Shown: in pieces, positions 1,630 through 28,065 of the stretch
How the letters are laid out: each line of letters begins with the position of its first letter
How positions within the stretch are numbered: the stretch's first letter is position 1
IMG/VR virus record: IMGVR_UViG_3300029822_000002
Coordinates: 66,107 to 94,286 of that record
DNA from: a virus
Reading direction: 5' to 3' (one strand)
Length of the DNA stretch: 28,180 nucleotides
Position numbers and translations under genes: made by a program
The notes under the pieces: model-generated
The model's input: the letters and a program-made list of their open reading frames with translations, nothing else
Database searches by the model: none
Told to the model about the DNA's origin: nothing

Positions 1630-2742
1630 ATGATTTTTCGCTGGTTAAGATTAATTTTATATAAACCATATTTATTTAATGTTAATAAGTATGGTGATTT
1701 ATTGCGCAAATGTATCATTAAAAATAATGTAAAATTATTCATATCTACTATTAATTTTATTAAAGATGATTATAAGAAGTATAGTTTTAAAATAGATTCT
1801 ATTGATTATATTTTTTCAAGGAAATTAGTTAGAACTGAGATATTAGATTATATTTTAGAAAATACTGATTTAAATGAGTATGATACATATCTATTAAAAA
1901 AATCTATTTATAATTATGATAATTTGAAAATGTATCATAAAATATCAAAATATTTTATAGAAAAATCAGAAAATGTAAAAATAACAATTATTAAAAGTTT
2001 AATATCAGCTTATAATAGGCATGGTAGAAAAAAAATCGAGTATAAAGATGAAATTTATAGATTATATAATACTGATTATATACATTCTATAATGTCAGTT
2101 TATCTTGATGACTTGGTTATAGAATCATGTTTTTATAATGATTTTGAATTAATAATATATTTTATAAATAATTTAAAAGTAAAATTACATGAAGATACAT
2201 TAAGAAGAATATTAATAAAAATTATAAATATTAATAAATTAGATATTATTAAAATAATTTATAAAAAAATTAAAAATATTAAATATAATGATAATTTATT
2301 ATATTCTTGTATTAATAGAAATCATAAACAAATTTTTGATTTTTTTATTGATAAATATAAAAACGAATTAAGTGATGAGTCAATTAATAATAATTTATTA
2401 TTAACAATTCAATTTAATGATATTTATTATTTTGAAAAATTATTAAAAATTGATAAAAATCCATCTATGTTTAAAAATAAATGTTTAAATTATGTAATTA
2501 ATAATATTAAAAATCCATATTTTATCGATTTATTATTAAATCATAAATATTTTAAGTTTGAAAATATTGATAATGTAAATGAAATGATTTTTATATTATT
2601 TGAAAATAAAAATAAATATATAAATATAATTAATAAGATATTAAATAATGAATACATTTTAAGTAAAATTAGTTTAGATGTTAAGAATAGATATATACCA
2701 AATTATAAACCTAAAAAAATAAAAAGAGAATATTATGAATAA
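1630..2742 (+). CDS. Hypothetical protein with degenerate ankyrin-like helical repeats
   Basis: 370 aa ORF; recurring ~30-35 aa units such as SCFYNDFELIIYFI, ININKLDIIKIIY, SCINRNHKQIFDFFI, IQFNDIYYFEKLL. The repeat family call is weak. Confidence 0.5.
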   Translation: MIFRWLRLILYKPYLFNVNKYGDLLRKCIIKNNVKLFISTINFIKDDYKKYSFKIDSIDYIFSRKLVRTEILDYILENTDLNEYDTYLLKKSIYNYDNLKMYHKISKYFIEKSENVKITIIKSLISAYNRHGRKKIEYKDEIYRLYNTDYIHSIMSVYLDDLVIESCFYNDFELIIYFINNLKVKLHEDTLRRILIKIININKLDIIKIIYKKIKNIKYNDNLLYSCINRNHKQIFDFFIDKYKNELSDESINNNLLLTIQFNDIYYFEKLLKIDKNPSMFKNKCLNYVINNIKNPYFIDLLLNHKYFKFENIDNVNEMIFILFENKNKYINIINKILNNEYILSKISLDVKNRYIPNYKPKKIKREYYE

Positions 2743-3838
2743 AAAAGAAATTGAACAAACATTTTTAAAATTAATTGAGTATACTTATATTTATGGTTAT
2801 GAGGATTATGTAAAAGAAAATATATTACCTAGTAATTTAAAAAAAGATCAATTTGGTAATTATTATATAAAAATTGGAGAATCAAAAACTTTATTTACTA
2901 GTCATTTAGATACAGTTGGGAAACAAAAACTTAAAGTAAATTATGAAATTTATGAAAAGGATGGACATAGATTTGTAAAAACTGATGGTAATACAATATT
3001 GGGAGCTGATGATAAAGCAGGTGTAACTATTATGTTAAATATGATAGATAATAATGTACCAGGTCTTTACTATTTTTTAATTGGTGAAGAGACAGGTGGA
3101 GCAGGATCTAGATTGTTAGCTAAGTATATGTTTAATATGTTATCTAATTATGATAGATGTATATCGTTTGATAGAAGAGGTTATGGCTCTATTATAAATA
3201 GACAAGTTGGAAAATGGTGTTGTTCTAATGATTTTGTAAATGGTTTATCAGAAGAATTCAAAAAGAATGGAATGGAATTTAAAGCTGATCCATATGGAGT
3301 AAGAACTGATTCTGCATATTTTATGGCGATTATACCAGAATGTACAAATTTATCAGTTGGATATTTTAATGAACATAAAGTAACAGAAGAACAAGATTTA
3401 GATTATCTTTTAGAATTATGTAATGTTTGTACTAAAATAAATTGGGAATCATTACCTGTTGTTAGAGAACCAGAAAATTTTGATTCAACTGAACCAGAAT
3501 ATGTACAAAAAGTAACAGATTTACCAATGTATAAATTATTTAATATTTTTGATGAAGTATATGATATAATATATGAAGAAGTTAAATTTTTATGTGCTAA
3601 TGATAATTTTTTCAAACCAGAAAAAGAAATGATTTTTTATGATAAGAATGATTTAGAGGAAACTTTAAATTTTATTGCAATTGTTCATTCTGATGGTTCT
3701 ATAACATTAAAGAAAAATGATATAAAAATAAAAATTAAAAATATAGATTCATTGAAGAAAAATAAAAAAAGATTAAAATCTATATTATCATTTAGTCATA
3801 ATTTATATATTGACGAAAAATCTATTAACTATAATTAA
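2735..3838 (+). CDS. M20/M28-family Zn metallopeptidase (paralog 1)
   Basis: SHLDT, LGADDKAG, GEE, FDRRG, TDS, NLSVGYFNEH metal-ligand motifs. Confidence 0.85.
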   Translation: MNKKEIEQTFLKLIEYTYIYGYEDYVKENILPSNLKKDQFGNYYIKIGESKTLFTSHLDTVGKQKLKVNYEIYEKDGHRFVKTDGNTILGADDKAGVTIMLNMIDNNVPGLYYFLIGEETGGAGSRLLAKYMFNMLSNYDRCISFDRRGYGSIINRQVGKWCCSNDFVNGLSEEFKKNGMEFKADPYGVRTDSAYFMAIIPECTNLSVGYFNEHKVTEEQDLDYLLELCNVCTKINWESLPVVREPENFDSTEPEYVQKVTDLPMYKLFNIFDEVYDIIYEEVKFLCANDNFFKPEKEMIFYDKNDLEETLNFIAIVHSDGSITLKKNDIKIKIKNIDSLKKNKKRLKSILSFSHNLYIDEKSINYN

Positions 3839-4608
3839 TGATAACAAAATTTATAAAATATATTAATGAAGGTGTATATATCGATCAATTTAAATTGTTA
3901 TATGATAATGCACCTTCTTTATTAAAAGAAGAAATTGACAAAACTAAAAAAATAGAACAAAATCCATATTGGCATCCAGAAGGAAATACTTATATTCATA
4001 TACAACTAGTGACAAATAGATTACATAATTGTTATAATGATATAAATTTAACACTATCTGGGTTTTTTCATGATTTAGGAAAAACTTATACTACCTACTT
4101 TGATGATAAGAAACAATCTTGGTCAGCACCTGGTCACGAAGATATATCAGTTAAAATATTAAATAAATATTCTAACTGGATTAAAAAAATGGGAGGTGAT
4201 ATAAATATTATAGAGTATGTTATTCAAAATCATATGCGATATAAACATATAGATGAAATGAGATTAAACATACAGAAAAATCTTATAAATCATAAATATT
4301 TTAAATACCTAGAAAAATTTTCAACTGCAGATTATGGTGGTAGTGAATTAGAATGCAAACCAATAAAAGATATTAGTGATATTAAAAATAATATTAAAGA
4401 AAACGAAATAAAGGAAAAAGAAAATAAAATAATATCAGATAAATTTAATGGTAGAATTATTATGAGTAAATATCCACAATTAAAAGGTAAAGAATTGGGA
4501 AATACAATTAACAATTTTAAGAAATATATTGGTGATTTTAGAGAATATGCTTTATTTAATACATCTGATAAAATTTTAAATGATTTTGATAAATTTATCA
4601 ATATGTAA
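3838..4608 (+). CDS. HD-domain phosphohydrolase, of the type attached to CCA-adding enzymes
   Basis: WHPEGNTYIH, FHDLGK, PGHE, NHM, ADY; no nucleotidyltransferase head domain. Confidence 0.8.
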   Translation: MITKFIKYINEGVYIDQFKLLYDNAPSLLKEEIDKTKKIEQNPYWHPEGNTYIHIQLVTNRLHNCYNDINLTLSGFFHDLGKTYTTYFDDKKQSWSAPGHEDISVKILNKYSNWIKKMGGDINIIEYVIQNHMRYKHIDEMRLNIQKNLINHKYFKYLEKFSTADYGGSELECKPIKDISDIKNNIKENEIKEKENKIISDKFNGRIIMSKYPQLKGKELGNTINNFKKYIGDFREYALFNTSDKILNDFDKFINM

Positions 4609-4642: not shown

Positions 4643-5254
4643 ATGTCAAATATATTAAAATTTAATGATTTTCTAAATAAAATAGAAGAAGGTGTAGGTG
4701 ATAAATATCTTAAAAGAAAACATAATATATCAGATGAGTTTGAAGATTTTGAAAAAACATATAACAAATCTAAATTAAAAAAAGATAATATTATAGGTAC
4801 TATCGGGAAAACTAGTATAATAAAAAACCCATCTAATCTAGATAATATAGAATACGGTGTAAGATGCGTAATTACTAAAAATGGTGATTTGTATATATCT
4901 GATAGTATGAGTGATGTTATTCATAATGACATATTATTATTTTTAAAAAACAAAGGCATAATAAGTGAAAGTCATATTAAATGGGAAAATTTAGAAAATA
5001 GAAAACCAAATGAATTTATAACGGTTCAAAGAGTATGGAATAAGGATATTATTGCAATCGGTGAATCTTATATGATACCAAAAAGAGGAGAAGAAAAACA
5101 AAATGCTTTAAATTTATTTGTGCCTTTTTTTAATAATGCAAAAATTAAAAATCCTAATATTAAATTTGTACTATTAACTATAAAAAGCGCAGTTAGAGAA
5201 TATTTAAATGAAAAAGAAATAAGTGACTGGAGAACTAAAGGTTCAGGTTCTTAA
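4643..5254 (+). CDS. Hypothetical protein with CTS-like N-terminus (possible virion protein)
   Basis: 203 aa ORF starting MSNILKFNDFLNKIEE; TTAATATATA box upstream. Confidence 0.7.
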   Translation: MSNILKFNDFLNKIEEGVGDKYLKRKHNISDEFEDFEKTYNKSKLKKDNIIGTIGKTSIIKNPSNLDNIEYGVRCVITKNGDLYISDSMSDVIHNDILLFLKNKGIISESHIKWENLENRKPNEFITVQRVWNKDIIAIGESYMIPKRGEEKQNALNLFVPFFNNAKIKNPNIKFVLLTIKSAVREYLNEKEISDWRTKGSGS

Positions 5255-8387: not shown

Positions 8388-9839
<1,452 letters not shown>

Positions 9840-15257: not shown

Positions 15258-18182
15258 ATGGATAGGAAAAATAAATTTATAAAGTTATCAAATGAAAAAC
15301 ATAATAATTTCTATAAATATGATAAAATTAACTATATAAATAATAAAACTAAAGTAATAATTACTTGTCCAATTCATGGTGATTTTGAACAATGCCCATC
15401 TTCTCATTTGAAAGGTTATGGGTGTAGGAAATGTGCAAATGATAAAAAAAGATTAAATAAGGATGATGTTTTAGTTAGATTAAATTCTATTCATAACAAT
15501 AAATATAAATATACTGATTTAATATTTAATAAAAATAGTGATAAAATAAAAATAATATGTCCAGTTCACGGTGAGTTTAAACAAATATTATCAGATCATT
15601 TAAGTGGAAGAGGTTGTCCTGTTTGTGGTGGTACAAAACCTAAAGATATTTATGAATTTATTAAAAAATCTAATAATATACATAATTATAAATATGATTA
15701 TATTAATTTTAAATATGTTAATAATAAAACAAATGGTATAATAATATGCCCTGTTCACGGAGAGTTTAAACAAAGTCCAAATATACATTTAAGGGGGTTT
15801 GGTTGTCCAGAATGTAAAACAAGAAAATCAAATACGACAGAATATATAGAAAAAGCAAAAATAGTACATAATAATTATTATACATATAATAATTCTAATT
15901 ATAATGGTAGTGATAAGTATATAATTATAACATGTCCAATTCATGGAGATTTTAAACAAAGAGCAGCTGGTCATTTACAAGGGTTTGGTTGTAGTAAATG
16001 CAATAAGAGTAAAGGAGAAATTAAAATTGAAAAATTTTTAATTGATAATAATATAAAATACGAAACCCAAAAATATTTAGAAGGGTGCGATAATATTAAT
16101 AAATTATATTTTGATTTTTATTTACCTTTATATAATCTATGTATAGAATATGATGGTGAATTTCATTATAAAAAAATATTTGAAAATAATGATATAAATA
16201 AACAAATAGAAAGAGATAGTATTAAAAATGAATATTGTAAAATTAATAATATTAAATTAATTAGAGTATCATATAAAGATTTTAAAAATATTGATAAAAT
16301 TTTAAAAAACAATTTATTTATGAATAATATGTTAGAACAACCTGATCCATCTGGTAAATTATCAAAAGAATCATATTTAAAATTAAATTATAATGAATTA
16401 TATTTAAATATAATAGATTATAGTAAAAACAATAATATTGAATCAATACCTTTTAAAGAAAAAGTTTATTGTTATAAACATAATATTATTCCTCCTAAAT
16501 GTAACAATCCAAATTGTGATAATAACGTTAAGTTTAAAAATTCTACATTTGGTTATAAACATTACTGCTCAATTAAGTGTATTAGTTCTGATCCAAATAT
16601 TAAAGAAATAAAAAAACAAAAATCTTTAGAAAAATTTGGTACTAAAACACCTGCAGAATCTCAGATAATTAAAGATAAAATTATTAAAACTAATAACAAT
16701 AAGTATGGTTATAATTGTTCATTACAGAATGAAGATATAAAGGAAAAAAGTAAAAAAACTTTAATGAAAAATTACGGTGTTGATGTACCATTAAAATCTT
16801 CTATTATACAGAAGAGAAGAATAGATAATTTTGATGTTAAAAAGTGGCGTAAAAAATTTGAAGAAACGATGTTGGAAAAATATGGAGTTAAGCATGCATT
16901 ACAATCAGATATAATCAAAGAAAAAATTAAAAATACAAATATAAATAAGTATGGTGAAGATAATCCAAATAAAGTTAAAAAAATTATTGATAAACGATTA
17001 AATAGTAGAGATGAAAATACATGGCAAAAAAATCTAAAAAATACAATGTTAGATAGATACGGTGTTTCTAATGCAATGAACATTGAAAAATTTAGAAAAA
17101 ATATATCATTAACACAAAGATTAAAGGAAAAAGAAAATAATAATTTAATATTAGATATTGATATAGATAATAAACAATATATAATGAAATGTGATTGCAA
17201 TAAAGATCATAATTTTGAAATATCTTTCCCTTTATATAAAAGTAGAAAACAATTTAATTATAAGTATTGCACAGTGTGTTATCCACCTTATAAAAATAAT
17301 ATATCACAATTAGAAGTAGATTTATTAAATTTTATAAAAGAAAATTATAACGGTAAAATAATAGAAAATTCAAAAAATATCATTCCACCTTATGAACTAG
17401 ATGTTTATTTACCTGACTTAAAAGTAGCATTTGAATTTAACGGTGTTTATTGGCATAATGAATTAAATAAACCAAATGACTACCATAAAACAAAAACTGA
17501 TATGTGTTTAGAAAAAAATATTCAATTAATTCATATCTATGAAGACGAATGGGTTTATAAACAGGAAATAGTCAAATCAATGATATTAAATAAATTAAAT
17601 AAGACTAAATATAAAATATTTGCAAGAAAATGTCAGATAAAAGAAATAACTGATAATAATTTGATAAGAAAATTTTTAAATTCTAATCATATTCAGGGTT
17701 TTATTGGTTCAAAAATTAAAATTGGTTTATTTTATAATAATAAACTGGTTAGTTTAATGACATTTGGCCAGTTAAGGAGAAACATGAATTTAAAATCATC
17801 AATTAATAATTTTGAAATGTTAAGATTCTGTAATAAATTAAATACCAATGTTATTGGAGGAGCATCAAAGTTATTTAAATATTTTATAAATAAATATAAA
17901 CCAGAACAAGTTATAAGTTATGCAGATAGAAGTTATAGTAGTGGGTATTTATACTACAAATTAGGATTTGATATGTTAAGTATAACAAAACCAAATTATT
18001 ATTATGTTATTGATGATATCAGAAGATATAGATTTGATTTTAGAAAAGATATTTTAGTTAAACAAGGATATGATAAAAATATGACAGAGCATGATATAAT
18101 GTTAGAAAGAAAAATTTATAGAATTTATAATTCAGGTAATTATAAATTTTTATATATAAATAAAAATAAAAATAAAAGATGA
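15258..18182 (+). CDS. Homing-endonuclease-like fusion: 4 Zn-binding CPxHG repeats, Vsr/EDxHD-like nuclease, KYG repeats, second nuclease, GNAT-like tail
   Basis: 4x CPxHGxFxQxxxxHLxGxGCxxC; FDFYLP..IEYDGEFH; repeated (E/N)KYGV; ELDVYLP..FEFNGVYWH..IYEDEW; RFC..GGASKLF..SYADR..GYLYYKLGF. Confidence 0.75.
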   Translation: MDRKNKFIKLSNEKHNNFYKYDKINYINNKTKVIITCPIHGDFEQCPSSHLKGYGCRKCANDKKRLNKDDVLVRLNSIHNNKYKYTDLIFNKNSDKIKIICPVHGEFKQILSDHLSGRGCPVCGGTKPKDIYEFIKKSNNIHNYKYDYINFKYVNNKTNGIIICPVHGEFKQSPNIHLRGFGCPECKTRKSNTTEYIEKAKIVHNNYYTYNNSNYNGSDKYIIITCPIHGDFKQRAAGHLQGFGCSKCNKSKGEIKIEKFLIDNNIKYETQKYLEGCDNINKLYFDFYLPLYNLCIEYDGEFHYKKIFENNDINKQIERDSIKNEYCKINNIKLIRVSYKDFKNIDKILKNNLFMNNMLEQPDPSGKLSKESYLKLNYNELYLNIIDYSKNNNIESIPFKEKVYCYKHNIIPPKCNNPNCDNNVKFKNSTFGYKHYCSIKCISSDPNIKEIKKQKSLEKFGTKTPAESQIIKDKIIKTNNNKYGYNCSLQNEDIKEKSKKTLMKNYGVDVPLKSSIIQKRRIDNFDVKKWRKKFEETMLEKYGVKHALQSDIIKEKIKNTNINKYGEDNPNKVKKIIDKRLNSRDENTWQKNLKNTMLDRYGVSNAMNIEKFRKNISLTQRLKEKENNNLILDIDIDNKQYIMKCDCNKDHNFEISFPLYKSRKQFNYKYCTVCYPPYKNNISQLEVDLLNFIKENYNGKIIENSKNIIPPYELDVYLPDLKVAFEFNGVYWHNELNKPNDYHKTKTDMCLEKNIQLIHIYEDEWVYKQEIVKSMILNKLNKTKYKIFARKCQIKEITDNNLIRKFLNSNHIQGFIGSKIKIGLFYNNKLVSLMTFGQLRRNMNLKSSINNFEMLRFCNKLNTNVIGGASKLFKYFINKYKPEQVISYADRSYSSGYLYYKLGFDMLSITKPNYYYVIDDIRRYRFDFRKDILVKQGYDKNMTEHDIMLERKIYRIYNSGNYKFLYINKNKNKR

Positions 18183-18538
18183 AAAATATTAAAATGTTTA
18201 ATGATTTTAATTTATTTGAAAATATTAAATTAAATGATGATGAAAAAAAATATTTATGGTCTAAAATAGAATATAGAAAAAAGAAGAATGCTATAGAACA
18301 AGAGAATGATTTATTTAATTTATTAAATGGAAATAAAAAATCTTTTAACAATGATGAATTTAATTTAATTTTAAACTCACTAGAATATACTTTTAGAAAA
18401 AAATTAAAAAGACAAGACAAGCCAATTGATAATGAATATTTTATGAGTATATCAGATAAAATTCCAGATGATTGGGTAGGTATTAAATATTCATCTATAG
18501 ATGCTAAAAATAAGAAAGATCAAAAAGATAAAAAATAA
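18179..18538 (+). CDS. Hypothetical protein with CTS-like N-terminus
   Basis: 119 aa ORF starting MKNIKMFNDFNLFE. Confidence 0.7.
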   Translation: MKNIKMFNDFNLFENIKLNDDEKKYLWSKIEYRKKKNAIEQENDLFNLLNGNKKSFNNDEFNLILNSLEYTFRKKLKRQDKPIDNEYFMSISDKIPDDWVGIKYSSIDAKNKKDQKDKK

Positions 18539-18619: not shown

Positions 18620-19189
18620 ATGGGAGGATTACCACATTTTACAAACATTACAAGTCATAATAGCAAATGGGAACCAGTTTATAAGAATTTGTTTGAAGTA
18701 GAGATATTTTTACCTGGTGTTTTATCTGAAATACATGGAACAGATGGTAAATTATTATTATTAGAAAATTGTAAAAATGCTAAATTACCAACTTATCCTA
18801 CATTATCAACAACTGAACAAAGATATAAATATTCAACTAGAATATTTGTTGGTTTTCCTGAATCAACATCTGTTACTGGACTAGATTTAGTTTTTAATAT
18901 AAATCAGAATGATAATAAACAAATGTTCACATTTAGAATGATAAAAGATTGGTATGATTTAGCTTGGAATAATGAAGATGGTTCTTCAAATTATAAATCA
19001 ACAATGACAGGAACTATAATTGTATATCAACATGATAGGGAAGGTGTTATTATAAGAAGGGTTACTTATCATAATGCACAAATAACCGGATTTAATGTTG
19101 GTGAAGATTTAACATGGGCCGGGGGAGCTGATATTCAAGAACTTACCGCTAATTTTGTGGCTGATTTTTGGGAGGACTACTATTTCTAA
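18620..19189 (+). CDS. Tail tube protein (T4 gp19-like)
   Basis: 189 aa; EPVYKNLFEV, DWYDLAWN, YKSTMTGTIIVYQHDREG, LTANFVADFWE; position after sheath. Confidence 0.75.
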   Translation: MGGLPHFTNITSHNSKWEPVYKNLFEVEIFLPGVLSEIHGTDGKLLLLENCKNAKLPTYPTLSTTEQRYKYSTRIFVGFPESTSVTGLDLVFNINQNDNKQMFTFRMIKDWYDLAWNNEDGSSNYKSTMTGTIIVYQHDREGVIIRRVTYHNAQITGFNVGEDLTWAGGADIQELTANFVADFWEDYYF

Positions 19190-19236
19190 CTGGTTGATAA
19201 CGAAGTAGTTAAGAAAAATAATAAATTTACATCTAT

Positions 19237-19266
19237 AACCCCTTAGAAATGAGGGGTTTAATTTTA
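19237..19266 (+). terminator. Intrinsic terminator
   Basis: AACCCCTTA-GAAA-TGAGGGGTT stem with GNRA loop and T-rich tail. Confidence 0.75.
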
Positions 19267-19301
19267 ATATCTTAATAATTTATAAATTAATATATAATAT
19301 T

Positions 19302-19682
19302 ATGAAATATAATAGTTATAAAATATTAGTTGTTGATGATAACTTAACATTTGTTGAAACATTAAGTTACATGATAAAAACTATATTAGGTGATAAGTTA
19401 TTATTATTAGATAGTGCAAATAATGGTAAAATTGCTATAGAAAAGGCAATAAAAAATAATTATAATATAATATTTATGGATGTTAATATACCAGAAATGA
19501 ACGGTATATATGCAACTAAAATAATAAATAGAGAATTATATAGACAAACTAAAATAGTATGTATATCGTTTAATAGAGATTTTAATACATTAAATGATAT
19601 GATATTATCTGGTGCTGAAAATTATATATATAAAGATGAATTAACGATTGAAAAAATTGAAAAAATTTTCAACGAATTATAA
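19302..19682 (+). CDS. Single-domain response regulator (REC, CheY-like)
   Basis: ILVVDDN, IFMDVNIPEMNG (phosphoacceptor Asp), CISF, GAENYIYK. Confidence 0.9.
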   Translation: MKYNSYKILVVDDNLTFVETLSYMIKTILGDKLLLLDSANNGKIAIEKAIKNNYNIIFMDVNIPEMNGIYATKIINRELYRQTKIVCISFNRDFNTLNDMILSGAENYIYKDELTIEKIEKIFNEL

Positions 19683-21150: not shown

Positions 21151-22032
21151 ATGCGAACAATTCATTTTTTCGACTTAGATGATACATTATGGAAAATAAA
21201 TGGTAATGTATGGATAATAAATAAAAATAATCCAAGTAAACCAATTATAAAATTAAATAAAATAGAATTATATGATATATTATCTGGAATACATATAAAT
21301 GATGAAATAAAGATAGATTATAATGGTAATACATATTGGATTAGTGAAAATATGTTTAACAAAATTAAAAAAAGATATCCAAATATATCAGAAGATCAAA
21401 TAGGTATATCTTTTATAGAATTTACAAATCCTTATATTATTAATAAAATATCTATATTTAGAGAAAATATAAGACATATAATAGGCAATAAAGATGATGA
21501 AATTGGTATCTTATCAGCTAGATATAGTGAAGAAAACGATAACTTATTATTATCCGCATTAAAAAAAGAATTAGAAAATAATGGTTTATTTATTGATAAA
21601 TTCTATTATGTAGGTGATTTTTTTAAAAGTAAAGTTAATGATGATATTGCATATAAAAAATCAAATGTAATATTAGAACATTTAATAGGGTTTAAAATAA
21701 AAAATGATCATTTCTTACCAATAAAACAAGATAAATATGATATTATTTATTTTTATGATGATGAATTTAAAAATATACAAGTAGCAAATGAAATTCAAAT
21801 ATTACTAGAAGAATATTTAAGAAATACTGAAGATGAAGTGTTTAATAGAATAATGAAATTATTAGAAACATCTAAACCCATATTATATAATAACTTAATA
21901 ACAAATAATAGTTTAAATAGATTTAAAACAACTAAAGTAGAATTAACAAAACCTATTACTTTCCCTATTAAAATAGAAGAAAGTTATAATATATTAAAAT
22001 TCAGTCAATTTAAAAATGATACTAAATTATAA
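21151..22032 (+). CDS. HAD-superfamily phosphatase (RNA-repair-type HAD-like)
   Basis: HFFDLDDTLW (DxD), ILSAR, YKK, FYDDEFKN. Confidence 0.75.
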   Translation: MRTIHFFDLDDTLWKINGNVWIINKNNPSKPIIKLNKIELYDILSGIHINDEIKIDYNGNTYWISENMFNKIKKRYPNISEDQIGISFIEFTNPYIINKISIFRENIRHIIGNKDDEIGILSARYSEENDNLLLSALKKELENNGLFIDKFYYVGDFFKSKVNDDIAYKKSNVILEHLIGFKIKNDHFLPIKQDKYDIIYFYDDEFKNIQVANEIQILLEEYLRNTEDEVFNRIMKLLETSKPILYNNLITNNSLNRFKTTKVELTKPITFPIKIEESYNILKFSQFKNDTKL

Positions 22033-22672
22033 TAAATTTATTAGTGAGAAACTTAGTATTTTTGGTGAAATGAAAAATTTAGCCGGTAAATTTTTATATT
22101 CAACATCAGGTGATACAAAAAAATCAGTTGAATTATTTATTAATAAATTAAATAATTCTAAAGATATAGATAATATGGAAAAAATATTTTTAAATTATCT
22201 TAAAAATAATAATCAAACATTAAAGGAATTATTAAAAGAAACAGATAATATAGAAGATATAAAAAATATATTTAAGGATAATTTATCATTTATTTATATA
22301 TCATTAAAATCATTTATATCATTTATAAATAAGAAAGAATATAATATATCAAATGTATTCAAAGATTCAAATAATAGTAATATTAAAAGATTATTTGTAG
22401 ATGATGAAAAAGTATTTAATAAAAATATTAATGGATTTGTTGATTTGTTTATTTTAGATTTATCTAAATCGCTTAATTTAAATACCAACAAAGGTCAAAA
22501 AGACGAAGAATTAGACAATATTATATCAAATGTGGATAAAGATTTGTTAAATGATATTAATGATATAAAAACGATTGAAATAGAAGAAGATTTAATAAAA
22601 TTAAAAAGTAATATTTTAAATTGGTTTAATATTAATATTATTAATAAAATTATTAATAATTTGAAACTATAA
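22016..22672 (+). CDS. Hypothetical protein with CTS-like N-terminus
   Basis: 218 aa ORF starting MILNYNKFISE. Confidence 0.7.
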   Translation: MILNYNKFISEKLSIFGEMKNLAGKFLYSTSGDTKKSVELFINKLNNSKDIDNMEKIFLNYLKNNNQTLKELLKETDNIEDIKNIFKDNLSFIYISLKSFISFINKKEYNISNVFKDSNNSNIKRLFVDDEKVFNKNINGFVDLFILDLSKSLNLNTNKGQKDEELDNIISNVDKDLLNDINDIKTIEIEEDLIKLKSNILNWFNINIINKIINNLKL

Positions 22673-25248: not shown

Positions 25249-26355
25249 TTAAAAATCCTTTTTATCTATAGACCACTTTAATTTATCAAATAAAAAATAT
25301 TTATCATACACTTTTCTAACTTGATCATATGTTATATCATCAATTATTTTTTCTAAATTCCAACTATCTGGTGTTATTAAATGTCTGATACTATTATACC
25401 TATTTATCTCATTTTTTTTGAATTGAACTTTATAAAAATCTTTAATAAGATCAAATCTTTCTTTTGTTAGATATTTGTCAGGATTAGATAATACCATATT
25501 ATATGTTTCTAAAACTTCATCAACTTTATCATCATCAGTTATTAATTCTGTACTTAAAAATCCATTATTATATGAATAACCATATACACTTGTACTTACA
25601 CCATAGGTTAATCCTCTTTTCTTTCTTATTTCATCCATTAATGGGGATTTCATAGATCCAGATAACATCATAGATATAAATTTAATATGAGCAAAATCAT
25701 CATCAACAAGTTTATAACCAATTATAGAACTTTTTTTGAAGTCAGCCATCTTTTCAATTATTAAATCCTTTTTATCTTCCTTTCTTATATATTTCTTATA
25801 TTCTTTATCTGAAAATATATCAAATCCTTCAAATTTATTATTTTTAGATACGTTTATAATTAAAGATGGTTTAGATAAATAATCTTTAAAATAACTTTTA
25901 ATATCATCATATGTTAGAGATTCTAAAGATTCCATTTTACCTATTGGACCATAATTACCTAATTCTTTTCTTAATATATTATAATAATGACTTGTTCCTT
26001 GATCTTGAAAAGTATCTCTATATTCTTGTATAACTACATCTCTTTCCGTTTCAAATTCTTTTTTTGGTATATTAAAATCAAGTAACATATTAACTAATTC
26101 GTGTCTATATTTATAGATATATTCATCTAATCCAGTTATATGATACACTATTTCAGTTGATGATGTGTATGCATTCCAATTTATACCATACCTGTCAAAA
26201 TCATCATATAATTTTTCAAATGATTTACACATCAAATGTTCCATTAAGTGTGATATTCCAAAATTTTTTTGTTCTTCATTCATAACTGAACCTTTATATA
26301 TTACATAAAATCCAGAAAAATCAGTCAGTGATTTTAAATTTATTATTTTACCCAT
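25249..26355 (-). CDS. M16 (insulinase-like) Zn metallopeptidase
   Basis: GISHLMEH (HxxEH), WNAYTS, ERDVVIQE, IRKKRGLTYGV. Confidence 0.9.
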   Translation of the reverse strand: MGKIINLKSLTDFSGFYVIYKGSVMNEEQKNFGISHLMEHLMCKSFEKLYDDFDRYGINWNAYTSSTEIVYHITGLDEYIYKYRHELVNMLLDFNIPKKEFETERDVVIQEYRDTFQDQGTSHYYNILRKELGNYGPIGKMESLESLTYDDIKSYFKDYLSKPSLIINVSKNNKFEGFDIFSDKEYKKYIRKEDKKDLIIEKMADFKKSSIIGYKLVDDDFAHIKFISMMLSGSMKSPLMDEIRKKRGLTYGVSTSVYGYSYNNGFLSTELITDDDKVDEVLETYNMVLSNPDKYLTKERFDLIKDFYKVQFKKNEINRYNSIRHLITPDSWNLEKIIDDITYDQVRKVYDKYFLFDKLKWSIDKKDF

Positions 26356-26375: not shown

Positions 26376-26567
26376 TTATATATTATTTTTAATTCGTTTA
26401 AAAATTTGTTTAATTTTATTTTTTCTTTCTTCTAACAAATTAATATTTTCAAATTGTTCCGCTATTATTGAATTAACTATCATATAATTACCTCGTCCAT
26501 ATCGTTGTTTTTGGTTTATTAGGTTAGATGCTTTATTTATTTTATCAATTAGATCTTTTTTCATCAA
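26376..26567 (-). CDS. Small protein resembling an internal fragment of a T4 gp23-type major capsid protein, with C-terminal basic tag
   Basis: KINKASNLINQKQRYGRGNYMIVNSIIA recalls the gp23 segment ..IARQTGRGEGNFIIASRNVV..; ends RKNKIKQIFKRIK. Confidence 0.5.
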   Translation of the reverse strand: MMKKDLIDKINKASNLINQKQRYGRGNYMIVNSIIAEQFENINLLEERKNKIKQIFKRIKNNI

Positions 26568-26994
26568 TCATTTTTTTAATTTTTTTAATTTTTTGATTTC
26601 TTACTTCTAATATATCATATGAAAATTGTATGGCATCAAATGATATTATTTTAGAATTAATTATTTTACCGTTACTATCGACATTACCATTATATCTTGC
26701 AGAATAATTTATTTTGAATCCATTATTAACTAGTTCTTTTAATATTTTGCCATTTTGAGTATTTAAAATTTGTATATCACCAACTATCCCATCTTGATGA
26801 AGCTGTATATTTTTTACTATATGTGAAATATTATTCAAATTAATATAACCACTATTATGAATATGATTATAACCTAATTCACCATATAATACACTATTTT
26901 TTGACTTATCGATAATATCGTTCCAATCACAACTATCTATGTCATAATATATACCTTTTTTTATTTTATTAAATTCTATTAATTTCTTTTTCAT
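26545..26994 (-). CDS. Degenerate T4 gp21-type prohead core protease homolog, probably inactive, with C-terminal basic tag
   Basis: YGELGY, INLNNISHIV, GDIQILNTQNGKILKELVNNG, YSARYNGNV, SFD; canonical GELxH and SSRG motifs altered. Confidence 0.7.
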   Translation of the reverse strand: MKKKLIEFNKIKKGIYYDIDSCDWNDIIDKSKNSVLYGELGYNHIHNSGYINLNNISHIVKNIQLHQDGIVGDIQILNTQNGKILKELVNNGFKINYSARYNGNVDSNGKIINSKIISFDAIQFSYDILEVRNQKIKKIKKMIDEKRSN

Positions 26995-27020
26995 TTTGTA
27001 TAATTAAACTATTTTCAATA

Positions 27021-27599
27021 TCATATTCTCTCATTTAATCTTTTTTTAATGTTTTTAATTTTTGCTAATCTTGAATTAACTCCCTCAAAATATCCTAAAA
27101 TATAATATTTTTTACCATAAAAAGATATATTATTATAATCTATGTATAAGTAATCGATTAAAGTGTGTATTAATATTTCCGATGTTTCATTTATTATTTT
27201 TATAATAGTTTTAATATATTCATTTATTATAGTTTCAAATAATATTCTTTTAGTATCTATATTACTTTCTAATGATGATATATTGTGTGGTAAATTGAAT
27301 GAAAATTGAACTTTTTCTGTCTTTTTGTTTGTAAATTTTACTTTAGATAGATCAATATTTTTAAATATTTCCATAGTTATCTTAAATACCATTTCTGTAA
27401 AATCTCCAAATTTTTGTTCAATTAAATTATCATTAAAATTTTTTTCTAAATACACTGATACATCTTTCCAATATTCTTTTGGGATATTATATTTTTCTAA
27501 TTCGCATTTCCACTTAGATACAACATTATTAATATGATAATTATTTAAATAATAATCATTAAAATATTTTACTGATAAATTATAGTCATATTGTTTCAA
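27021..27599 (-). CDS. Hypothetical protein (TTG start), N-terminal half weakly capsid-N-terminus-like, with C-terminal basic tag
   Basis: 192 aa ORF; VSKWKCELE..WKDVSVYLE; ends RLAKIKNIKKRL. Confidence 0.6.
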   Translation of the reverse strand: MKQYDYNLSVKYFNDYYLNNYHINNVVSKWKCELEKYNIPKEYWKDVSVYLEKNFNDNLIEQKFGDFTEMVFKITMEIFKNIDLSKVKFTNKKTEKVQFSFNLPHNISSLESNIDTKRILFETIINEYIKTIIKIINETSEILIHTLIDYLYIDYNNISFYGKKYYILGYFEGVNSRLAKIKNIKKRLNERI

Positions 27600-27608
27600 A
27601 TTTTATTT

Positions 27609-27839
27609 ATTATTTTTTTAATCTTAAATTTTCTTTAATTTGTTTTATTTTTGATATATTCTTCCGATATTATATTTTCAAAAAAAATCACTATTATTTA
27701 TATTATCATATAATTCTGATGCAATTAATTGAATTCTTGATTCTTCGCCGTTATTAAATTTAATAATCAATGATGGTGACATTGTATGTTCGGATATAGT
27801 CATTATAGATGTAACATCATATTTTTTCAAGTAGTCCAT
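27609..27839 (-). pseudogene. Apparently disrupted small gene
   Basis: ATG 27839 (overlapping the upstream gene) runs 53 codons to TGA at the end of a T8 run (27678-27680); an out-of-frame tail ISKIKQIKENLRLKK* follows. Confidence 0.45.
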
Positions 27840-28065
27840 TTTTTATTCTATTAATTTTTTCAATCCTTAAACTAATAAATACTTCAAGTAATTTATTGTC
27901 TATTTTATCAAAAACTCCTTTTATATCAGATTGTTCATATATAAAATCAATTTTATTACCATTGTATAAATGTAAAACAACAATATGACGAATTACATTG
28001 TTTTTATCTTCATCATATACATGTACGATATTATATTCTTTCAATAGATAATTATATTTAAACAT
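27817..28065 (-). CDS. Hypothetical protein with C-terminal basic tag
   Basis: 82 aa ORF ending LRIEKINRIKNGLLEKI. Confidence 0.65.
   Translation of the reverse strand: MFKYNYLLKEYNIVHVYDEDKNNVIRHIVVLHLYNGNKIDFIYEQSDIKGVFDKIDNKLLEVFISLRIEKINRIKNGLLEKI

Follow-up and report, generated by a model that had tools for sequence, protein, structure and literature searches.

Prohead proteases carry a His/Ser/Asp triad, and small, diverged paralogues of these enzymes were first noted in phiKZ-like phages, i.e., gp117 of SPN3US, gp206 of 201phi2-1 (145 amino acids, aa) and gp143 of PhiPA3 (136 aa); in the SPN3US-type paralogues Ser and Asp align with those of the enzyme and the His does not (Ali et al. 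2017, PMC5694885). The N-terminal segment of gp21 blocks the active site and is self-cleaved during activation (PMC9958956), while at the other end SPN3US gp245 loses a C-terminal propeptide, which has been suggested to direct this protease to the prohead interior (PMC7411985, PMC10052503), and C-terminal processing also occurs in T4 gp21, phiKZ gp175 and 201phi2-1 gp268 (PMC9026906). Here, we describe a compact relative of these proteases, a 149-aa protein termed mini-protease, that is encoded between a 192-aa and a 63-aa open reading frame (ORF) in a 28,180-nucleotide stretch of the IMG/VR virus record IMGVR_UViG_3300029822_000002 (referred to as the window). All three proteins end in the same short helical peptide, the C-terminal tag.

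The window forms the 28-kb end of a contig of 94,286 bp with a G+C content of about 20%, for which CheckV reported 13% completeness, implying a genome of about 0.7 Mb. The genes in question are real, conserved accessory genes of this huge uncultured phage. As had been stated in the original prediction, their ORFs are intact and tightly packed, with a 23-nt overlap between the 149-aa and the 63-aa ORF and adjacent gaps of 26 and 20 nt, and they are conserved in relatives: nine for the 149-aa, five for the 63-aa and five for the 192-aa protein, all of constant length and with identities down to 60-63%. The location away from a head operon was also confirmed in so far as neither a portal nor a capsid gene is present in the 94-kb contig, which covers about 13% of the genome.

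Fold, catalytic residues and family of the mini-protease

In agreement with the gp21-type pattern proposed earlier, the 149-aa protein matched phrog_207 'head maturation protease' in the PHROGs collection with E=1.6e-10, and tblastn returned g21 of cyanophages, Lak phages and, as the best match, the 735-kb uncultured phage LR756501. An AlphaFold model derived from a 140-sequence alignment reached a predicted local distance difference test score (pLDDT) of 90.1 (an earlier model from 9 sequences with a pLDDT of 54 was discarded). When this model was used for a Foldseek search, the three top PDB matches were T4 gp21 chains (5JBL; template modelling score, TM, of 0.70-0.72 and root mean square deviation of 2.3-2.5 A over 133-137 columns), followed by weak matches to herpesvirus proteases. 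The best viral structural matches were uncharacterised proteins of 124-148 aa from cultured jumbo phages (fHe-Yen9-04, Phabio, RAY, Psa21, Aeromonas 65.2). Pfam family PF03420 matched neither the 149-aa protein nor anything else in the contig at E<=10; among the relatives, one reached 15 bits as compared to a cut-off of 27 and another one (P0008) has a precomputed PF03420 match. As judged from the model, the protein is a genuine member of the gp21/S77 fold with the full core fold. With T4 gp21 (MEROPS S77, PF03420, 5JBL) it shares, in addition to the fold, the G-E-L motif, the nucleophilic Ser, the Asp and a helical C-terminal tail. Unlike T4 gp21, it scores below the Pfam cut-off, its gene lies outside any portal-protease-scaffold-capsid module, Tyr stands in the place of His85 and the N-terminal 43 or so residues are gone. 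The protein begins at about residue 44 of T4 gp21 and therefore is devoid of the self-cleaved segment that blocks the active site.

The mini-protease had been described as dead on the basis of GELGY in place of GELxH and SARY in place of SSRG. This holds true for the catalytic His (T4 His85), which is replaced by Tyr42, whereas the position of the nucleophile had been misassigned. The 5JBL chain is the H85A/S140A mutant, an exchange that inactivates T4 gp21 (PMC12991175), and reads 'GELNA' and 'GVASRG' with an offset of 19 residues caused by a tag. As this mutant has Ala at Ser140, the nucleophile is the first Ser of 'SSRG', and this residue is retained as S98 and invariant in nine close relatives. 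D120, equally retained, is taken as the putative third residue of the triad on the grounds of the alignment. The 42-53 loop contains an insertion of three residues that carries His44 and His46 and is the sole part of the model with low confidence. The His is present in four of the nine close relatives (P0004-6 and P0008). In the remainder Tyr is found at this position, in most cases along with the three-residue insertion with two His; one of them, P0007, has Tyr and no His nearby. Since relatives with 63-82% identity carry GELGH or GELNH, the loss of the His is allele-specific within the lineage.

For comparison on the DNA level a single relative contig was available that is 98.1% identical over 8.1 kb, such that all substitution rates given here rest on one pair with 166 differences. 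Out of these, 52 fall into the 450-bp gene for the mini-protease and 29 into positions 26800-26899, i.e., the His loop. The synonymous substitution rate (dS) of the mini-protease gene is 0.156 vs. 0.026 for the downstream gene for an M16 peptidase, a six-fold difference. Taken together with the ratios of nonsynonymous to synonymous rates (dN/dS) given further below, this distribution points to recombination or diversification at the loop combined with weak recent constraint. Separately, 84 of the 166 differences are located in another divergence hot spot at positions 19000-19600 of the window, around the place where a 189-aa ORF ends and a gene for a response-regulator receiver protein (19302-19682) begins.

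A search with the lineage profile among 1.84 billion cluster representatives yielded 1961 proteins at E<=1e-3. The best 150 of these 1961 matches, mostly 110-185 aa in length, fall into more than 100 clusters at 50% identity. Short members (<=185 aa) and long members (>185 aa, including protease-scaffold fusions of 540-680 aa) differ with regard to the triad: His, Ser and Asp are complete in 9 of 120 short proteins, at least one residue being missing in the other 111, vs. 23 of 32 long ones. Both His and Ser are lacking in 44 of the short proteins, in which Arg-Pro are the commonest residues at the nucleophile site. Arg is also the most frequent residue at the nucleophile position in the family overall (60 of 152 members). 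On the other hand, the structural residues G38, S57-H58, R100 and D120 are conserved in short and long groups alike.

The complete 735-kb genome of LR756501 contains a close homologue of the mini-protease side by side with a canonical enzyme. The latter is an 811-aa protease-scaffold fusion with the signature GEFDH...SSRAAG that adjoins the portal and capsid genes. The homologue is a 178-aa paralogue with GELGY...FRPRAAG, a second copy residing about 62 kb away from the real module. In this one genome, the canonical fusion and the mini-protease homologue coexist. Because the family to which it belongs mostly has a broken catalytic triad, the 149-aa protein is, as far as can be judged from sequence, a pseudo-protease, or an enzyme of weak activity at best, and does not serve as the maturation protease of the phage. 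The mini-protease is dispensable, since three related huge genomes do without it.

The protein fits the SPN3US gp117 type, being about 135-150 aa in length with a gp21-like core, an incomplete triad and without a long C-terminal domain. As in that type, we are dealing with a second short (about 140-150 aa) gp21/gp175-like gene, situated away from the real protease in the case of LR756501, whose product lacks the C-terminal portion of the true enzyme and in which Ser and Asp align but His does not. Unlike the SPN3US type, the 149-aa gene belongs to the T4-like/huge-phage branch (cyanophage g21, Lak and 735-kb phages), it adjoins a gene for a capsid fragment and its product ends in a helix common to unrelated proteins; neither tags nor capsid fragments are described in the paper on SPN3US. 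The mini-protease thus is a member of a known, uncharacterised class, and the earlier notion of an undescribed system does not apply to it. Tagged capsid-fragment minigenes and interchangeable C-terminal tags, in contrast, were not found described in the papers searched.

Capsid-derived minigenes and C-terminal tags

The product of the 63-aa ORF (62 aa if started from ATG) was previously proposed to resemble a segment of gp23-type capsid proteins. In a comparison with Pfam family Gp23 (PF07068) it scored E=2.9e-4 with 20.8 bits, i.e., below the cut-off of 24.4, over 42 residues only, and two of its relatives have precomputed PF07068 matches. Phrog_138 was matched with E=3.3e-3. In hhalign the 63-aa family aligned with a 78-sequence gp23 alignment at P=3.4e-4 as compared to P=0.69 for a control profile, a profile of the family retrieved the capsid protein as top match among 1003 ORFs of LR756501 (E=1.9e-3), and in the reverse search with the LR756501 capsid protein the 63-aa ORF came out on top of all contig ORFs (E=6e-4). 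These five tests are related and not independent of each other. All matches land on one and the same segment of 35-40 residues that corresponds to about residues 353-386 of T4 gp23. The resemblance is thus probable in spite of its shortness, and the protein is probably a slice of 35-40 residues from the axial domain of a capsid protein. It is too small to hold an HK97 fold and its gene is derived from a capsid gene fragment at most. Duplication of capsid genes is known in T4-like phages, where gp24 constitutes a full-length vertex protein with HK97 fold. Like the gp23/gp24 paralogues (PF07068), the 63-aa ORF shows similarity to a conserved part of gp23; unlike gp24, it holds only about 35-40 capsid residues that are fused to a tag. 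Within the family of five (82-100% identity) the C-terminal third is nearly invariant and the N-terminal half varies.

For the 192-aa protein the proposed likeness to a capsid N-terminus, located at residues 23-56, did not hold up (hhalign P=0.1; gp23 N-terminal hidden Markov model E=2 among 146 ORFs; BLASTP E=5). The protein does not match any Pfam or PHROG family, its own family comprises five members with 60-94% identity, and the ESM Atlas provided no usable match for it or for the 63-aa protein. It is an orphan. An origin of the cluster from head genes accordingly applies clearly to the protease and probably to the capsid piece, and not to the 192-aa gene. The best match of the 192-aa protein in LR756501 (E=0.006 among 1003 ORFs) is a DPYGEENW peptide of the kind described below, aligned with residues 44-56 (window 27432-27470, minus strand); these residues include a family-invariant S-x-Y-L-E-x-N-F-N and may represent a degenerate internal copy of that tag or a chance similarity.

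Capsid-fragment genes are not confined to the window. On the same contig a second one is found outside the window at contig positions 32950-33345 (L010:12950-13345). It encodes 131 aa with the helix motif R-K-L-K-I-N-K-I about 30 residues from the end and matches the LR756501 fragment 542326-542892 with E=3.8e-6. LR756501 has at least seven small ORFs of 78-196 aa that resemble parts of its own capsid protein (583 aa), with E-values of 1e-5 to 2e-26. Two of them are 'mini-capsid' genes of about 190 aa in which the N-terminal region is joined to a helix and, in one case, to the C-terminal strand as well. Among the capsid-fragment ORFs, two bear a DPYGEE tag. The 192-aa gene was considered as a counterpart of these mini-capsid genes of 189-196 aa and this was dismissed, as no significant match was obtained. 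In addition, a 76-aa ORF of LR756501 (240978-241208) matches the N-terminus of its protease. LR745206 likewise features small capsid-fragment ORFs with weaker signs.

The C-terminal tag had been taken as a common mark of head-gene mimics. It is real, but it does not represent a signature of such mimics. The tag is an amphipathic helix of the type hydrophobic-R-x-x-K-[IL]-x-x-[IL]; the strict motif R..K[IL].[KRNQ][IL] occurs within the last 24 residues of 13 of the 140 contig ORFs and not once internally in 25,857 residues. It is the best-conserved part of the 149-aa, the 63-aa and the 192-aa family. About ten further, unrelated contig proteins end in it, for which Pfam and PHROGs gave no functions. 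The helix tag also terminates 36 of 115 short gp21-like proteins from unrelated phages, while others end in DP[YF]GEE.W or N-[KR]-R-[YFI]-K-[FL]. In LR756501 the motif DP[YFW]GEE.W is present about 100 times, 42 times at the extreme C-terminus of an ORF, including the mini-protease. It often forms tandem arrays (at 499-506 kb and 552-561 kb), and in most cases the residues before it are [KR]-R-[VI]-[FY]-[ST]; we found no account of a DPYGEE.W peptide in phages in the papers searched. A signal on the DNA level was considered and discarded: synonymous codons and wobble bases of DPYGEE.W vary in LR756501 and the motif is kept across phages of differing G+C content, from which it follows that the peptide is under selection. 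Small ORFs near the M16 genes of three other phages with genomes of 634-642 kb end in helix-type tags as well (R-I-N-K-I-K-K-I, R-R-N-K-I-N-R-I), and the helix tag is therefore common to several huge-phage lineages. Overall, the tags behave as lineage-specific labels on many small proteins, with the mini-protease as a recurrent carrier.

Upstream of the tag, within a distance of up to nine residues, the T4-type cleavage motif [LIVMFY]-x-E is found in 8 of the 14 tagged contig ORFs (background 0.16, p=5.6e-4), a test that was chosen after the data had been seen. In the window, such a hydrophobic-x-Glu sequence stands a short way upstream of the tag in each of the five tagged ORFs. As a general rule, a cleavage site always preceding the tag was abandoned; it is true in the contig and fails in the wider short family. 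The idea that the tag mimics the C-terminus of the scaffold is convincing by eye only and is unsupported. At the opposite end of the proteins, many contig ORFs exhibit N-termini resembling the T4 capsid-targeting type (M-K-x-[IL]-K-x-[YF]-N-E-S or M-x-x-I-L-K-F-N-D-F).

Possible roles of the tagged proteins

We favour, with a probability of roughly 0.4, an explanation in which the tag mediates docking to a common partner, probably in the assembling prohead core. The tag would then be a lineage-specific docking peptide that takes many different small proteins to one and the same partner, which would most likely reside within that core. The pseudo-protease would associate with the real protease or modulate it, e.g., in mixed oligomers, whereas the piece derived from the capsid would employ a capsid contact surface a second time. 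The genes would code for minor components of assembly or cargo, probably of a transient nature, rather than for immune decoys. The prohead core suggests itself as the partner's location because gp21-fold proteins reside there and the C-terminal segment of giant-phage proteases is thought to target there, because a hydrophobic-x-Glu sequence closely precedes the tag in all tagged ORFs of the window and because the phage also uses T4-like N-terminal capsid-targeting leaders. Two described systems come close. Like the T4 capsid-targeting sequence (CTS) of IPI-III and Alt, the tag is a short peptide at one terminus that is common to unrelated proteins. Unlike the CTS, it is C-terminal and has a different sequence; as the phage already has T4-like N-terminal leaders, the tag would be a second, separate address. 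With the propeptide of SPN3US gp245 the tag shares the position in a C-terminal segment; in the window a hydrophobic-x-Glu sequence adjoins the tag, which is not a general trait of the wider family.

A number of observations weigh against docking in the prohead core. Packaging of tagged proteins in proheads is a prediction from sequence. SPN3US gp117 is absent from the published proteomics tables of virions, heads and proheads. Across the short family at large, no enrichment of the cleavage motif before the tag is seen (7 of 34, background 0.22, p=0.64). A tag scoring matrix, built from the tags of proteins other than proteases, failed to single out the ends of protease-scaffold fusions from four huge phages (percentiles 0.07-0.75) and scored small active proteases weakly, with 4 of 9 in the top 9%. 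The mini-protease is missing from three of the four related genomes of 634-735 kb, namely the phages of 634-642 kb. Recent constraint is weak, with a dN/dS of 0.61 for the 149-aa and of 0.90 for the 63-aa gene (the latter from five changes only) vs. 0.04 for the M16 gene. Finally, Ser98 and Asp120 are retained and His residues are close by, so residual catalysis is possible.

Among the alternatives, an immune decoy or sponge deserves attention, although we consider it unlikely. The impaired protease and the capsid piece would occupy host sensors in the cytoplasm, e.g., by binding the activation loops of a cyclic oligonucleotide-based antiphage signalling system (CBASS) uncut. The cGAS/DncV-like nucleotidyltransferases (CD-NTases) of CBASS are switched on through cleavage by prohead proteases, T4 gp21 being one of them (PMC12991175), which makes an inactive paralogue that still binds the substrate a plausible trap. 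The genes are accessory and patchily distributed, SPN3US gp117 went undetected in particles, and the loop that has lost the His is a hot spot of divergence with 29 differences per 100 bp in a gene whose dS exceeds that of its neighbour six times. The raised dS, however, fits recombination as much as selection, no anti-defence or defence-related genes were found in the neighbourhood, no known sensor epitope is tied to the 35-residue capsid segment, and the occurrence of the tag on about ten unrelated proteins is left unexplained. Positive evidence for a decoy was not found, the hypervariable His loop being the sole hint of an arms race. A more general proposal, which we regard as doubtful, is a so far undescribed system of 'C-terminal addresses' in giant phages, in which a lineage-specific peptide would send dozens of small proteins, purpose-made capsid slices and the pseudo-protease included, to one hub. 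The head-derived pieces would then not be structural parts; they would regulate or mimic the assembly of heads or bait those host sensors that recognise head proteins.

A non-canonical but active protease, in which Ser98 and Asp120 would cooperate with a His close by (H44, H46 or H58, the last being near-invariant) and which would be a second enzyme for processing, possibly in concert with the M16 peptidase, we rate as improbable. S98 and D120 are invariant in the lineage, some relatives possess the canonical His, alleles with Tyr42 mostly carry the insertion with two His, S57-H58 is nearly invariant across the family and the gene for a zinc peptidase follows directly downstream. Yet S57-H58 is kept regardless of whether a member is active, as would suit a structural function, and P0007 has Tyr without any His nearby. 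Moreover, the prevalence of Arg at the nucleophile position and the rarity of a complete triad in the short proteins argue that the family-conserved function is not catalysis. Just as improbable are decaying, near-neutral duplicates of head genes that drift without function. The two high dN/dS ratios from the single pair, the His/Tyr polymorphism among close relatives, the three related huge genomes without a mini-protease and the brevity of the capsid-like piece (about 35-40 residues) are what would be expected from decay, and neutrality had already been named as a point to be checked. On the other hand, all relatives have intact ORFs of constant length and tags that are invariant or nearly so. 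Furthermore, proteins of about 150 aa with gp21 likeness make up more than 100 clusters with conserved structural residues, the structural model is confident (pLDDT 90), and the 'mini-capsid' genes of LR756501 with several segments joined in frame are hard to derive by decay. That tagged fragments enter or cap the heads of co-infecting relatives and poison them, as weapons of a dominant-negative exclusion, appears far-fetched. Capsid fragments and inactive protease subunits can generally poison assembly, and lineage-specific tags (the helix here, DPYGEE.W elsewhere) could provide discrimination of self and non-self, but the tag would lead the fragments to the partner of the own phage and not to that of a competitor, many tagged proteins are unrelated to head genes and no evidence at all points to such a use.

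To our knowledge, head assembly in phages with genomes of 0.5-0.7 Mb is essentially unstudied. The large family of pseudo-proteases, with its more than 100 clusters among the best 150 matches, points to a conserved role other than catalysis, one that has gone unnoticed since the first mention of such proteins in SPN3US. Minigenes made from capsid slices are present in no fewer than two distant huge phages, to which LR745206 adds weaker signs. The lineage-specific tags offer an experimental handle on the tag's partner. If this partner is the prohead, the tag would represent a second cargo-loading code beside the T4 CTS that may be useful in capsid cargo engineering; if it is a host sensor, a new principle of counter-defence would emerge with relevance for the sensing of prohead-protease activity by CBASS.

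Gene neighbourhood and further features

The cluster is part of an operon on the minus strand with the order, in the direction of transcription, of a partial ORF, the 82-aa, 53-aa, 192-aa, 149-aa and 63-aa ORFs, the gene for the M16 peptidase and two small orphan ORFs. A programmed frameshift that would fuse the 149-aa and 63-aa ORFs is unlikely, as a TGA closes the 63-aa frame just upstream and each ORF has a tag of its own. Promoter cores of the T4 type, TATAAATA, are located 65-90 nt upstream of the 82-aa and the 192-aa genes; such cores are common in this DNA with 20% G+C (46 found vs. 29 expected). Scans for sigma-70 promoters and terminators were uninformative. Metagenomes with matching DNA stem from landfill, fermentation and groundwater, their contigs being too fragmentary for an analysis of variants, and the listed carriers of the sequence do not include an RNA dataset. 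Coordinates of all features are compiled in the table.

Table. Location of the tagged genes, their sequence elements and related ORFs (positions refer to the window unless indicated otherwise).
Feature	Position	Strand	Remarks
Partial ORF, 3' end only, cut by the contig end	28079-28180	-	terminal tag-like helix, S replacing R
82-aa ORF, upstream part of the operon	27817-28065	-	C-terminal tag at 27820-27867
192-aa ORF, tagged, fold unknown	27021-27599	-	family of 5; no Pfam or PHROG match
192-aa protein, C-terminal helix tag, R177 to I192	27024-27071	-	motif scan, family alignment
149-aa ORF, compact gp21/S77-fold paralogue (mini-protease)	26545-26994	-	phrog_207, AlphaFold model, Foldseek 5JBL
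149-aa protein, GELGY (residues 38-42, Tyr42 at the position of the catalytic His) and variable loop 42-53	26836-26883	-	alignment with canonical proteases, 5JBL
149-aa protein, 'YSAR' (residues 97-100); S98 aligns with T4 gp21 Ser140, A99 replaces Ser141	26695-26706	-	alignment with 5JBL
149-aa protein, D120 of 'SFDA', aligned with the Asp of 'VDAV' of T4 gp21	26635-26637	-	Asp in 138 of 152 family members
149-aa protein, C-terminal helix tag, R132-x-x-K135-I136-x-K138-I139 onward	26548-26601	-	predicted helix 128-148; invariant in relatives
63-aa ORF (62 aa if from ATG)	26376-26567	-	residues 3-42 gp23-like; residues 48-63 tag
63-aa protein, C-terminal helix tag, R48 to I63	26379-26426	-	one K/Q change across all 5 family members
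M16 (pitrilysin-type) zinc peptidase, intact HxxEH	25249-26355	-	Pfam PF00675 and PF05193; 20 nt downstream of the 63-aa ORF
Capsid-fragment ORFs of LR756501	LR756501: 276342-276932, 565330-565899, 542326-542892, 552409-552918, 730457-730711, 145891-146127, 564998-565333
Helix-tagged small ORFs near M16 genes	L137: 9002-9154; L138: 8493-8696, 9349-9579; L139: 6480-7042		three 634-642-kb phages
ORFs with T4-like N-terminal leader, contig	C1: 24190-25920, 25920-27068, 56272-57732, 57766-58956, 65634-66008
ORFs with T4-like N-terminal leader, window	3838-4608, 4643-5254, 18179-18538, 22016-22672

Homologues of the M16 peptidase among deposited phages are restricted to uncultured phages of 634-735 kb and, as a weak match, gp2 of Bacillus phage G, and its gene, which is under strong purifying selection in the one pair compared, may be a marker of this group of huge phages. 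LR756501 has two copies. A role as conserved partner of the cluster was considered and set aside with the link unproven: the M16 gene adjoins the cluster here and lies 1.2 kb from two tagged ORFs in LR756501, and neither a mini-protease nor a capsid fragment occurs within 5 kb of M16 in the three other huge phages. The connection of the peptidase to the cluster is thus uncertain.

Further genes in the window code for a tail sheath protein of 1124 aa, a homing endonuclease, TnpB, a peptide deformylase and an AAA ATPase. On the plus strand, two paralogues (2735-3838 and 8388-9839) match phrog_4191 'peptidase' with E-values of about 1e-68 to 1e-70 and share similar N-termini, '...EYTYIYGYED' and '...DYTYTYGDED', respectively.

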